From positions 1 to 64,000 of the IMG/VR virus record IMGVR_UViG_3300028048_000123: DNA of 64,000 nucleotides, one strand, 5' to 3'. Position numbers and translations under genes: made by a program. Positions within the stretch are counted from its first letter, which is position 1. Each line of letters starts with the position of its first letter. Shown here one piece after another: positions 8,044 through 14,353 of the stretch. This DNA is from a virus. Its lineage: Duplodnaviria > Caudoviricetes. The notes under the pieces are model-generated. The model searched no databases. It worked only from the letters and a program-made list of their open reading frames with translations, and was not told the origin of the DNA.

Positions 8044-8063
8044 GAAAATGCAGCTAAACAAAT

Positions 8064-8090
8064 AAAAAATAAAGCAACTTACGCTGCTTT
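8064..8090 (-). terminator. Intrinsic terminator after the glycosyltransferase operon
   Basis: aaagca/tgcttt stem with a U-tract on the minus strand. Confidence 0.55.
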
Positions 8091-8220
8091 ACTAAAATAT
8101 AGCCTGTATTTAGTTTTATTTTAAGTTATTAACATTTGGTATAACCATATGTAAATTGTAAGCTTCATTAAACTCTATTATAGTGTCAGCTATACTTGTA
8201 ACTCATTCTTTGAAGCCCAC

Positions 8221-8964
8221 TTAGGCTTTTGGCAACTCTACTCTACTATAGAAAGGTCAGTCAGTCCTGTTTCTTGTAGTAAAATGTCATACTTTAATAG
8301 ATGGGTCAGCTCACATATAGCCACAGTTCTCTAAGTGGTTCATAGCTCCGTAGTGATAGTCTAAGTGAAGCTCAGGGTGCTTGTTCCAGTCCTTATATCA
8401 AAAGTTAAGCACACTCTGGTCATGCCAAGAAACCTTAGGGTCTAGGTCATCTAAGTATCTAACTAAGTTATGTCCTAAGTGTGGGTTCTCTTTAAAGTCC
8501 CAAACAAACATACCTGTGCAGAAAACAGAAGCTCCTAAAGTGTATTCAGTAATAAGTGGTCTTGGCGAAATATTAACCACAGCTGTCATATGTGGCATAT
8601 CCATAACTTCATCTATGTTTTGCTTAATCCATTGGTCAGTATCTAAGTAGACTATTTTATCAAACTTCTCTTCAACTTGTGTATCAAGCAATGATAGCTT
8701 AGGAAAAGCACTTTTATATCAAGCTGTTAGTCCGCTGCTATTAGTATATTTAGAAGTTCTTGTAGATAATACAAAATCAGTATCAAGTTCTAATATATTA
8801 ATGCCAACTGCTTTTAAAATATTTCTAGTATTTGAATTCACTTCTTTTGTTATAGCACAGTATATTGGATATTTTGTTTTTGTATCCAATAGATTTTTAT
8901 ATGCACCTAAAAGCATATAGACATAATAGTCATTAGAGCTTAAGAAAAACATTCAAGCTTTCAT
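8221..8964 (-). CDS. Glycosyltransferase family 8, 247 aa; 6 TGA-Trp
   Basis: FPKLSLL, FDKIVYLDTD (DxD), DQSVLN and VWHF are GT8 motifs; open only if TGA is read through; TAA at 8221. Confidence 0.8.
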
Positions 8965-8967
8965 AGT

Positions 8968-9843
8968 TTAAAAATATAAATAATTAGTTTTATGGGCGTT
9001 CGTAACTTGAATCCCAATTCTAGGAACAGGTTTTTTAGCAACTAAATCACTTGTTTTTGGTGGCAATGGTCTAGGATTAACCTTTACTTCTGGTATGCTT
9101 CTTTGATAGCTGTCCATAAACTTATGAATATCAGCAGGCACTTCACCATTCTCTTTTATATATCTTAGAATAGCATTTGTATTGCTTATTAAGTGATTTG
9201 TTCTAAGGCCAGGTTGTTTAGCTCATGTAGAAGGCACTGGCTCATTTCTGTTCAAAAATTGTACATGAGTTATAGTCTCTGGTGGAATAAATTCGCAAGC
9301 TGCAAATTTTACATGCAAATAGTAAGCATAAACATGGTCTTCAAAAGCTTCATTCTTTTGTGGATCTACATCAATGTATGGTGCTTTTTCAAATACGTAC
9401 TTAGAAATTGCACATAAATTTAGCTGTGCAGCTTTGTAGTCATCAAAAGTGCAGTTCTTAATTCCTGAGTGAATAAAACAGAAGCCATTTGGATGGTCGT
9501 CTATGGCCTTCATATAATCTTCAGCAGCTGTTTCTGCAGAGCATTCTATAATAGCATCATCATCAAGTGTTATTATGTAGTCATAGTCAAGATTTAAAAA
9601 CTCATCCCTTAAAGCTTTTCTTGCGCCTAAAATTCCAAGTGGATTATATCTTTTAACTATTATTTTATTGCTTACTTTTGGCACTTTTAGTCTACCTCAG
9701 TTTTGAGCTATTATTAAAATATCTATAGTAGGTCATAGCTCATTAAGTTGCTTAATAAGTCTATCTAATCTTGCTTTTCTTTCTTTCCTAGCTTGCTCAT
9801 CATCTGGAAGCCAGCTAATGATTCCAAAACATTTCTTTAACAT
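8968..9843 (-). CDS. GT-A fold glycosyltransferase-like protein, 291 aa; 3 TGA-Trp
   Basis: SD AGAGG plus ATG 9843; ILGARKALR...YIITLDDD resembles the GT-A nucleotide-binding region; ends TAA 8968. Confidence 0.6.
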
Positions 9844-9852
9844 TATATTCCT

Positions 9853-11745: not shown

Positions 11746-12382
11746 TTCTTATTAATTCCTTTACTTTTTTGTAAAATTGATCATGTGTATTTTCTGTATA
11801 ATCTAAATCAGTAATTATAACATGCTTTAAGCCAAGCTCTTTCGCTAAGCTATTAAACTCACTGCTGTAAAAATTTCATCAGCTAGTAGCTAGACTATGT
11901 TGGGTACTAATAAAGATAACTTTGTCTAAAATATTATATTTTTTTAAGCAATCAATAATATTTAGGACTTGGCCCCTATTTAGCTTATGTGTCAGTCTAT
12001 CTACATCATTTTCATTTAAGTTAATAGTAAAATAAGATACTCTATCGGTTTTAACATCTTCAAAAAAACTTAAAAATGTATCATATCTTTTTTGTAACTC
12101 CTCCTGGTATGCCGGTAAAGTTGGGTTATTATGCACTATTTGCACATATTTAAATTTATAGGCTACTTCAGAATCGCCAATAAAATTAGGGTTCCTTTTT
12201 GTGACTATTGCTTTATCTGCCCACTGTATAATACTCTTATAATATTGACCACTCAATAGTAGCTCAATACATCCACTACCATTTGTTACAACATTATCAA
12301 CAGGTCCTTTTAGCCTATTCTTGCCTAGATAACCAATACAGGCACAATTTCCACTAAGCTGCATAAATTTATAGTTTTCCAT
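11732..12382 (-). CDS. DUF1796-like (putative papain-like) protein, 216 aa; tandem TGA-TGA
   Basis: LSGNCAC...RLKGPVDN resembles the DUF1796 SLGxxC...PFDW start; frame continues past TGA-TGA (11876-11881) to TAG 11732, overlapping the next start. Confidence 0.4.
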
Positions 12383-12444
12383 TTATATTTCTTCCTATAA
12401 TTGAATATAGCTTCATTTTTCAGTGCTTAAGTCTTTCCTATGCA

Positions 12445-13365
12445 TTATCTCTTTCTTCCATATGTTCATTCGCCTGTCATATCATCTTTTCTTAGCTCAA
12501 AGCTTGGTGATTCAACTCAGCGTAATTTTTGGCAGTGTCTAAATATTGGTTCGCCTCTTTCCAAGAAGTTAAGCTGCTCATCACGGCTAAATACAATATG
12601 CTCTAAGTTTTCACAACGATAGAAAGCAAAATTGCCTATATGTTCAACACTAGCTGGTATAACTATTTCAGAAAGATTTTTACAGCGTCTAAATGCATCA
12701 TGCTCAATAGTTTTTAGTTTGGATGTTTCAGGCATGCCAAGCATTACCAAGTCAGCAGAAGCACAGCCACAGAAAGCACTTTTAGCAATGTATGTAACTG
12801 AATCTGGTATTATAATACGTTGTAATTTAGCACAGCCTGAAAAAGCATATTCTTCAATTCTATCTAAATTTTCTAATGCTTCTGTATTAACTCTTTCCAG
12901 TGCTGAGCAATCAAAGAAGGCTTCTTTACCAATAACTTTGCAGGTATGTGGCAAAATAACACTTTTTAATCCATGGCTTAACTCAAATGTTTTAGGTGGT
13001 AAATAATCTAACTTAGCAAGTATAAAAGCTTTTTCTAAGCTATCACATTCACTAAACACACCTAAGCCCAATTCTTTGACTGAAGCAGGTATAACAGCAG
13101 ATCCAGATAGCCATTTGCAGTTCACAAAAGCAGCTTCTTCTATAACTTCAACCTTATCTGGTATATTACAACTGCGAATTGCTGAGCCTTGAAAAGCAAA
13201 TTTTTCAATTTTAGTTAAGTCTAGTGGCAAATGCACTTCATCAGCTTGATGATTTCTAAAAGCTCTATCACCGATAATTTTTATATTATCTGGCACAACA
13301 ACAGTTTTTTCACCAATATCATTACACTTTAGTAGCTCATCTTTTTCTATTATAAATTCTTCCAT
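12445..13365 (-). CDS. BspA-type leucine-rich repeat protein 2, 306 aa; 2 TGA-Trp
   Basis: Repeated IxxxAFxxCxxLxxIxIPxSV units; reads through TGA 12517 to TAA 12445. Confidence 0.85.
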
Positions 13366-14288
13366 TATTTTTTAACCTCATAATCCCAGTTTATACCATC
13401 GTCTTTACACTTAAATGTAAAAGATGGGAAGTCTAATACTTGAAGCTTCTTACATTCAAAGAATACATCACGTGCTTGCCTTATAAATTTAACTTGGTCA
13501 TCACTTAAAAAGTTAACTCTTTTAAGCTCTTCACAGCCTCTAAAAACACCTTCACCAAGGTATTTAACACTTGCTGGCATAGTAAAGTCATATATAGCTG
13601 TATGTGCAAAAGCATAGTCTTCAATAGTTTCTAATTTAGAATCGGCTGCAGTAGATACAAAATTGATAGAGCTTAGCTTTGGACAGTTTGCAAAAGCAAA
13701 GCCCCCTATTCACTTAAGCTTATTGTTAAAGAAAATTCTTTGTAATCCACTATTTTTAAATGCAAATGCATGCATTGTCTCTAAGTTGTCAGGTAAATTA
13801 ATAGCTGAAAGCTCAGGACAATACGTAAAAGCTTCCTGACCAATAGCTGTTATATTATTACTTAGTCTTACATCCTTTAGCATTGCACAGCTTTTAAAAG
13901 TGCGATCTGGTAAAGTTTCTAATTCAGGACAATTTACAACAGCTGTTTCTAGTTTGTTACAGTCACAGAACACTGCAGTACCCATTTGCACTAAAGATTT
14001 AGGTAATGTAATTGTGTCGTGCAATTCATTACAGCCTACGAAAGCTCTATTACCAATCTCTTTTAAGCTTTCTGTAAATGTAACAGACTTTATGTCTGAA
14101 CGATAAAAAGCATTATCTTTAATAGCTACAATACCTGATAGCAATACACTATTAATTTTATTAGCATATCTAAAAGCATTTTGACCAATAGTAGTTAGTC
14201 CAGATGGTATTGTTATATTGTTTTCTGTATCATCTTCAGGTATATATAACTGCACTGTATTTTCAGATACTTTTAAATCATAGCTCAT
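13365..14288 (-). CDS. BspA-type leucine-rich repeat protein 1, 307 aa; 1 TGA-Trp
   Basis: Fragments 13710..14288 and 13365..13580 join via TGA; TIGQNAF/IGNRAF/IGQEAF repeats. Confidence 0.85.
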
Positions 14289-14316
14289 TTATTAGCTCTC
14301 CTTTTAAGCGATCGTA

Positions 14317-14326
14317 TAATTTAGCT
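14317..14326 (-). promoter_or_regulatory. Candidate late promoter (LRR-glycosyltransferase operon)
   Basis: AGCTAAATTA 29 nt before ATG 14288. Confidence 0.7.
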
Positions 14327-14353
14327 TATAATAAAGCAGTCATAAACAAAATC

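Follow-up and report, generated by a model that had tools for sequence, protein, structure and literature searches.

The stretch of DNA analysed here (the window) covers positions 1 to 64,000 of a 76,464-bp virus record of IMG/VR (IMGVR_UViG_3300028048_000123; Caudoviricetes), in which all genes lie on the minus strand, the G+C content is ~33% and no tRNA gene was detected. We identified in this window a cassette of six genes with in-frame TGA codons, located just upstream of the head-tail adaptor gene and encoding two repeat proteins and a set of predicted glycopolymer enzymes. In operon order, the cassette encodes two paralogous proteins with BspA-type leucine-rich repeats (LRR) and no signal peptide (LRR protein a, 307 amino acids (aa), 13365-14288; LRR protein b, 306 aa, 12445-13365), a 216-aa alpha/beta protein distantly resembling DUF1796 (11732-12382), a 630-aa fusion of a glycosyltransferase (GT) domain of family GT2 with a Stealth domain (9853-11745), a 291-aa GT-A-fold glycosyltransferase (8968-9843) and a 247-aa GT8 glycosyltransferase (8221-8964), all on the minus strand. 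The successive junctions consist of a TAATG overlap, a gap of 62 nt, an overlap of 14 nt and gaps of 9 and 3 nt.

When TGA is translated as tryptophan, six open reading frames (ORFs) fill 8221-14288 with a coding density of ~99%; in a translation with table 11, the same region breaks into fragments. An earlier note on this DNA, made from the sequence alone, had described six tightly coupled genes containing 19 TGA codons in total, and the ORFs, their junctions and the alignments bear this out (1 + 2 + 2 + 5 + 3 + 6 codons in operon order). None of the ORFs of the contig ends in TGA. In the GT2-Stealth protein, three of the five TGA codons (W292, W351 and W434) fall on tryptophan columns that are invariant across 21 homologues, while in the 291-aa protein codons 49 and 207 correspond to invariant tryptophans and codon 37 to a nearly invariant one. 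As judged from these alignments, TGA is a tryptophan codon in the cassette. The flanking genes encoding the capsid, the protease, the adaptor and a 1075-aa protein use only TGG, and related phages show the same contrast between cassette genes rich in TGA and main head genes devoid of it. The use of TGA is bimodal throughout the contig: it is absent from the capsid, protease and adaptor genes and from most replication genes, and the TGA-rich genes are those of the cassette, homing-endonuclease-like genes and some tail genes. For instance, the gene at 57339-58415 contains eight TGA and no TGG, and a 954-aa enzyme in the related locus L148 contains 15 TGA. Such recoding can hide whole pathways from standard annotation.

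The cassette is framed by putative transcription signals. Two terminator-like hairpins detected in a hairpin scan (14417-14392 and 14372-14354) close the upstream unit, a promoter-like motif, GCTAAATTA, lies at 14317-14325 and precedes the operon's first ATG by 29 nt, and a terminator-like hairpin with a T run ends the unit at 8093-8068. The unit of the adaptor gene begins with the following copy of the motif (8034-8042). The single motif at 14317 and the single terminator near 8070 announced by the earlier note are thus both present, with the caveat that an additional copy of GCTAAATTA occurs within the gene for LRR protein b (12823-12831). The motif is present 12 times in the window, always on the minus strand, against 3.3 copies expected. 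The whole contig has 14 copies, all of them on the gene strand and 13 of them located before genes, among which are those of the protease and the adaptor and several homing-endonuclease-like genes of the replication arm. In that arm it is found before 40567-41361, 57339-58415 and 61037-62029 in the window and before 64391-65416 of the contig, four genes whose ORF endings resemble those of homing endonucleases (putative). In T4, many homing endonuclease genes are expressed late. It is plausible that GCTAAATTA has a role similar to that of T4 late promoters, in which case the cassette would probably be transcribed late, from the phage's own repeated promoter motif.

The GT2, Stealth, GT8 and LRR domains predicted in the earlier note were all recovered above cut-off by searches with hidden Markov models (HMMs). 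A Pfam scan detected a GT2 domain (PF00535, 150.5 bits) at aa 5-168 of the 630-aa protein, with D39, D90, D92 and D93 invariant among 21 aligned homologues, and the Stealth CR2 region (PF11380) at aa 318-415 with 105.1 bits for a cut-off of 39.4. The Stealth domain spans approximately aa 278-570 and is followed by a Pro/Lys-rich linker and a tail ending in NYFLYF. The motifs that define Stealth proteins are an IDVVYTF-like CR1, a Glu and an N-x-D in CR2, an Arg in CR3 (R419 of CpsY) and CLND or CIND in CR4 (PMC10668966). Their counterparts here are IDLVVPYVD at aa 278-286 (CR1), the invariant E380 and N397-D398-D399 (CR2), the invariant F486-R487 (CR3) and CLND at aa 536-539, with N538-D539 invariant (CR4); the equivalence with CpsY residues is by motif and not by residue-by-residue alignment. 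Taken alone, the CR4 model scored under its cut-off (16.2 versus 27.4 bits). Sequence matches to proteins of known structure include GNPTAB (7s6n, 4e-19) and CpsY (8j2n, 5e-15), and TarP is among those of the GT2 domain. The protein thus appears to hold all four Stealth regions and is predicted to transfer hexose-1-phosphate from a uridine diphosphate (UDP)-sugar.

The 291-aa protein belongs to a phage-borne family found on large contigs, for which no Pfam family scored above cut-off, so that it cannot be assigned to a CAZy family. It contains invariant D94-D95-D96 (DDD in 40 aligned sequences), E168-D169 and R75. Its predicted structure has a mean confidence (pLDDT) of 87, falling below 50 in a disordered linker and a tail ending in NYLYF, and gave 233 PDB matches at E<=0.001, of which the best is EXTL2 (2.4e-6) and the top ones also include ppGalNAc-T2 and TarP. 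The model thereby confirms the GT-A fold that had been guessed from the sequence. The GT8 protein matches PF01501 with a small margin (28.2 bits, cut-off 24.3) and has a DTD motif at about aa 108-110. Its gene is ended by an in-frame TAA at codon 248, where the 88% identical relative from locus L148 has a tyrosine, and is 35 codons shorter than that of this 282-aa relative. A remnant of the C-terminus persists in frame behind the TAA (8116-8220, 34 codons, 31 of which match the relative), and the terminator follows this older end. The TAA may reflect a recent nonsense mutation, a variant within the population or an error of assembly.

The relationship of the 216-aa protein to DUF1796, also suggested in the earlier note, holds only transitively: the protein itself has no Pfam match and does not match PF08795 even at E<=10, but 12 of 40 distant members of its family do (best 6.2e-7), which would make it a distant DUF1796 relative. 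Alignment of the family revealed invariant N12, C13, R23, G26, P27, D29, N30 and H84, and the conserved Cys13/His84 pair would suit the idea of a Cys-His function proposed by Pfam for PF08795. In a wide structural search, its model (pLDDT 92.5) gave middling scores (Z 6-7) with flavodoxin-like folds and SGNH-type esterases/acyltransferases, and Foldseek returned just poor matches of small-GTPase type; PDB profile searches with the 216-aa and 291-aa proteins gave no match. In at least five protein clusters a DUF1796-like domain is joined to Stealth, and in two to GT2-type domains, which argues for a functional tie between the 216-aa protein and its GT2-Stealth neighbour. The two LRR proteins match PF13306 (203.6 bits for a, 208.8 bits for b), and the LRR paralogues share a conserved C-terminal motif, (F/S)P(S/D)F x (L/F) x K ... 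W. None of the six cassette proteins was predicted to have a membrane segment or a signal peptide.

We collected related loci from IMG/VR by an alignment-based search (a single-protein locus search returned nothing). In GenBank phages, near-identical DNA was limited to one trivial match of 160 nt. The phage belongs to a clade of TGA-recoded myophages of the gut or rumen with genomes of roughly 220 kb; the per-locus test of the genetic code is crude, and unreliable where loci are GC-rich. Glyco-enzymes invariably occupy the slot immediately before the head-tail adaptor gene in phages with 80-92% capsid protein identity, and the capsid gene lies on the other side of this slot wherever the fetched locus reaches it. 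The earlier note had placed the operon between the capsid and neck genes; its position before the adaptor gene is confirmed, but it does not directly adjoin the capsid gene (17787-19091), from which it is separated by a DNA-methylase-like gene (PF01555, 1.3e-6) and an HNH/DNA-binding gene (the pair at 15995-16822 and 16800-17675), along with two terminators and four small ORFs. In the unrelated locus L022, a Stealth gene has a homologue of the methylase-like gene ~3 kb away.

The slot is conserved and its content is not, so that synteny in relatives, a check proposed in the earlier note, holds for position and not for enzymes. Designating as tailed those enzymes that end in ...[YF]LYF, the cassettes comprise, for instance, a DUF1796-like protein, a tailed GT2-Stealth and a tailed GT-A (L001); an HNH protein, a DUF1796-like protein, a tailed GT8-Stealth and a tailed GT-A (L003); a DUF1796-like protein, a tailed TagF-like protein, a tailed GT-A, a second GT-A and a GT8 (L123/L125); a tailed DUF1796-like protein, a TagD-like cytidylyltransferase, a tailed TagF-like protein, a tailed 268-aa protein without assigned identity and a tailed GT-A (L155); a tailed pyruvyl transferase-GT92 fusion and a tailed GT-A (L121); a DUF1796-like protein, a tailed GT-A and a UDP-glucose dehydrogenase (L149); a single tailed GT8 (L122); a tailed Stealth, a tailed GT8 and three GT-A copies (L129); or about eight LRR paralogues, a tailed 954-aa FrhB-like/pyruvyl transferase/GT8-like enzyme, a tailed GT-A and a GT8 (L148). 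Genes for making donors are also represented, by the TagD-like cytidylyltransferase in L152 and L155 and the UDP-glucose dehydrogenase in L149, and pyruvyl transferases occur in L121, L148 and L154. In L123/L125 and L155, a TagF-like glycerophosphotransferase replaces Stealth; the two enzymes, both of phosphodiester chemistry, swap for one another. The nearest relative, L148, is 98% identical in the adaptor and 88% identical in both GT-A and GT8, yet has neither a Stealth nor a DUF1796-like gene. The cassette is thus a mosaic, with a faster turnover than the head genes, and in this it resembles bacterial capsule and O-antigen loci. The glycopolymer island of the head-gene block changes fast, and the six genes are one of its versions.

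In 26 of 32 IMG/VR loci, the GT-A family is found no more than 10 kb from a portal, protease, capsid or adaptor gene, with two different slots used across capsid identities of 41-92%. The Stealth family had no match in 50,697 GenBank phage records, that of Bacillus phage SP-15 included, which led us to reject SP-15 as a source of the Stealth chemistry, but it recurs in uncultured large phages (41 IMG/VR loci), and its fusion to GT2 is common in metagenomes (474 matches), as is a GT8 fusion among metagenomic relatives. The remark that a GT2-Stealth fusion is unusual in a phage is therefore true of GenBank records and not of uncultured phages. Similarly, the description of a six-gene pathway overstates the unity of the operon: most related cassettes lack the two LRR genes, which are an add-on of this subclade outside the conserved core. 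LRR genes nevertheless recur near such cassettes in L012, L026, L148, L157 and L169, and a link with the cassette is possible. In L148 (62-7114), the ~eight diverged LRR copies share 23-35% identity with the two LRR proteins of the window, an expansion that points to a binding protein undergoing rapid diversification. The complete 223-kb relative G008, of the same group of phages, has beside its thymidylate synthase gene a gene (L179, 992-1471) that matches Tad5 (PF25190, 4.7e-11), a family of Thoeris inhibitors, and represents a counter-defence gene.

A short C-terminal peptide is shared by enzymes of different families. In the window, a Pro/Lys-rich linker followed by ...NAHK(S/T)NY(F)LYF terminates both the GT2-Stealth and the GT-A protein, and across the clade cassette enzymes end in ...ADGxxxx[YF]LYF or close variants. 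The carriers of ...[YF]LYF, usually two per cassette, belong to at least six families, including Stealth fusions, GT-A, GT8, TagF-like proteins, pyruvyl transferase fusions and a DUF1796-like protein. Stealth homologues without the extension, one of them on a 579-kb contig, stop right after the catalytic domain. Over ~176 kb in total (the 76 kb of this phage plus 100 kb of G001, the contig of L001), the tail is confined to cassette enzymes. In a search of the records of five relatives for the tail pattern, all matches on the gene strand were inside the cassette. A separate search with a DNA pattern of the tail gave 12 matches, of which four were chance ones without ORFs. The type of tail tracks the phage clade: YLYF is found at capsid identities of 80% or more, a different Tyr/Gly-rich aromatic ending at 71-75%, and none in distant clades. 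Two further types, GLPxLD(E/D)SIFW and FTGLPEE(Y/W)WK(D/E)xF, are each common to Stealth and GT-A proteins of other phages (proteins P0004, P0005, P0008, P0178, P0185 and P0189; locus L005), and such tails seem to be a wider habit of these enzymes, with lineage-specific sequences.

The tail is probably a docking peptide for one conserved partner. L122 contains one tailed GT8 and no other cassette gene, and the partner is therefore not encoded in the cassette. The LRR proteins were ruled out as partners by the many tailed cassettes, the majority, that have no LRR genes. Docking to a clamp or to the replisome is unsupported, no other tail carrier having been found in the 76 kb of this contig, replication genes included, or in the 100 kb of G001. 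As a separate observation, the 683-aa ORF just upstream of the portal gene (24034-26085), in the putative position of the large terminase by synteny with SP-15, ends in ...SDGILFLG and its G001 counterpart (14538-16631) in ...SDGLFYL, a faint echo of ...DGxxxx[YF]LYF that may be due to chance.

The interpretation towards which we lean, and to which we give slightly less than an even chance, is that the cassette encodes a late, cytoplasmic, teichoic-acid-like glycan system decorating the virion. The GT-A enzyme would probably place the first sugar, the GT8 and GT2 domains would lengthen the chain, and the Stealth domain would add hexose-1-phosphate from a UDP-sugar, creating phosphodiester links, with the DUF1796-like protein, Stealth-fused in other proteins, assisting or modifying. 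The acceptor would most likely be part of the assembling particle, and the short aromatic peptide would probably dock the enzymes, through its flexible linker, to their common partner. No lipid-priming, flipping or export gene accompanies these enzymes, and the acceptor should therefore be located inside the cell. The virion is favoured by the lasting linkage to head genes, the soluble nature of the enzymes, the absence of priming and export genes, the promoter motif common with head genes and the serotype-like variability. The late phospho-glycan pathway of the earlier note, which left the choice between virion, packaged DNA and host surface, is thus a fair reading of the enzyme set, and its target is narrowed towards the virion without being settled.

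Several observations weigh against virion decoration. The slot also holds DNA-methylase-like and homing-type HNH genes and is therefore a general insertion hot spot, so that position alone proves little. The late timing is inferred from a motif. No Ser/Thr-rich stretch, and no acceptor, was found in any ORF of the contig, and neither a C-terminal tag shared among structural proteins nor a Ser/Thr-rich one was found in this contig or in the 100 kb of G001; the record is ~34% complete, and this phage's own tail tube lies outside the contig. The cultured distant relatives SP-15 and HSE3, both Bacillus phages, have no cassette at the slot. Finally, enzymes of these types are just as characteristic of the synthesis of cell-wall polymers, and phage DNA is another known substrate of GT-A/GT8 pairs (bioRxiv 10.1101/2023.12.21.572611).

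These last two points correspond to two other explanations of the same genes. The enzymes could work on lipid-linked precursors of wall teichoic acid or capsule, on the cytoplasmic side of the membrane of a Gram-positive host, for instance to mask receptors on debris or to block superinfection, with the aromatic and basic tails serving as membrane-interface anchors. Stealth, TagF-like and TagD-like proteins, UDP-glucose dehydrogenase and pyruvyl transferase are indeed classic wall-polymer enzymes, TarP, a prophage enzyme of wall teichoic acid, is among the matches of both the GT2 domain and the GT-A model, the relatives infect Bacillus, Listeria and Streptococcus, and Tyr, Phe, Trp and Lys/Arg abound in the tails. 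However, none of the cassettes seen encodes a priming transferase, flippase, ABC exporter or ligase, although the host could supply them, a polymer begun late in a lytic cycle would have scant time to reach the surface, and a host target leaves unexplained the lasting linkage to head genes in two slots. In L122, the slot holds a lone tailed GT8. We regard this explanation as unlikely. Even less probable, in our view, is that the tail loads the enzymes into the prohead for injection with the DNA, so that they act at the start of the next infection, as does the T4 protein Alt, which is packaged, injected with the DNA and active early in infection. The late promoter motif, the position in the head module, the enzyme-only tail on a flexible linker and its tracking of the clade would all fit, but several large enzymes would be an odd cargo, and known capsid targeting signals of the T4 type are N-terminal.

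Hypermodification of DNA, in which the GT-A enzyme would sugar a hydroxylated base, GT8 and GT2 would add sugars and Stealth a sugar-1-phosphate, shielding the DNA from host nucleases, has a precedent in SP-15. This phage is among the nearest cultured relatives of the capsid protein (28% identity), and its DNA carries glucose and phosphodiester-linked glucuronolactone, for which teichoic/teichuronic-like genes were proposed (PMC5977210). GT-A enzymes acting on phage DNA have R...DDD...EDY/F motifs and TarP-like folds, the enzymes adding the second sugar are GT8-like, and their clusters can sit near structural genes (bioRxiv 10.1101/2023.12.21.572611); the R75, DDD94-96 and E168-D169 residues of the 291-aa protein and the TarP match of its model agree with this, and the variability of the cassette would fit an arms race with restriction systems. 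This target is nevertheless weakened by the failure to find a route to hydroxymethyl-pyrimidine (a thymidylate-synthase-like hydroxymethylase, or a methyltransferase with TET/JBP) in five complete relatives that carry the GT-A gene, this phage's own genome being ~34% complete. Tet_JBP matched none of the five, a weak blank in that no control genome exceeded the cut-off either; a gene of the thymidylate synthase family is present in only two of them and in none of G000-G004, and that of G008, ~47% identical to the phi3T/B. subtilis type, is an ordinary phi3T/ThyA enzyme. Moreover, neither SP-15 nor any other GenBank phage has a Stealth homologue, the glyco-enzymes (six at most) together with pyruvyl transferases exceed the needs of any known base modification, and the linkage is to head genes and not to replication genes. 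We thus consider DNA as the target quite improbable, more so than the host envelope and less so than packaged cargo.

In this clade of large gut phages, the enzyme island of the head block differs between near-identical phages in the manner of bacterial capsule or O-antigen loci. Such variability points to a surface feature under diversifying selection, which may concern immune or mucus interactions or adsorption to debris, and the shared tail peptide offers a simple handle on what the enzymes act upon. To our knowledge, particle glycosylation has been shown for a few mycobacteriophages only, and we found no report of phosphodiester-linked (teichoic-acid-like) glycans for any phage in the literature searched.

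The closest known systems share parts of this arrangement. In mycobacteriophages Che8, Corndog and Myrna, virion proteins are O-glycosylated (Freeman et al., 2023, as described in PMC12619734 and PMC11256854). There, according to these descriptions, phage-encoded soluble glycosyltransferases modify the phage's own particle in the cytoplasm, as we propose here. The glycans described are located on C-terminal stretches of capsid and tail-tube subunits (PMC12619734), a tag that has no counterpart on the structural proteins of this contig or of the 100 kb of G001, and the genes of the cluster F1 phage Maravista are described near the 3′ end of the genome, whereas those of the present cassette lie in the head block. 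Moreover, here it is the enzymes that share a C-terminal peptide, and the set includes phosphotransferases (Stealth or TagF-like). The Stealth family itself comprises bacterial capsule polymerases, CpsY of M. tuberculosis and the animal GlcNAc-1-phosphotransferase (PMC1285062, PMC10668966, PMC8913297). All four regions and the catalytic residues of CpsY have motif counterparts in the phage protein, but the latter is encoded in the head-gene block of a lytic-type phage, without export machinery, and carries a C-terminal linker and tail. With the DNA glycosylation clusters (Pyle et al., bioRxiv 10.1101/2023.12.21.572611), the cassette shares a GT-A enzyme with DDD and ED motifs and a second enzyme of GT8 type, and with SP-15, one of the nearest cultured capsid relatives, enzymes borrowed from teichoic-acid pathways (PMC5977210). 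It differs from both in that no base-hydroxymethylating or oxidising enzyme was found in the complete relatives, and from SP-15 in having Stealth.

In PBCV-1 and Mimivirus, capsid and fibrils are glycosylated in the cytoplasm by virus-encoded enzymes, independently of the host. The proposed system would resemble these giant viruses in this respect, although their hosts are eukaryotic and their enzymes unrelated, and we know of no tail peptide shared by their glycosylation enzymes. An analogy for the tail is provided by the cargo-loading peptides of encapsulins, which are short C-terminal sequences on flexible linkers that address unrelated enzymes to a shell of HK97 fold; the comparison is by analogy only. 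By this analogy, and as a speculation that we consider doubtful, ...[YF]LYF would be an addressing peptide docking swappable polymer enzymes (Stealth, TagF-like, GT-A, GT8 and pyruvyl transferase) onto or into the assembling head, so that the particle or the entering DNA receives a strain-specific, teichoic-acid-like phosphoglycan. Phages would in this case gain a serotype-like coat from a plug-in enzyme system.

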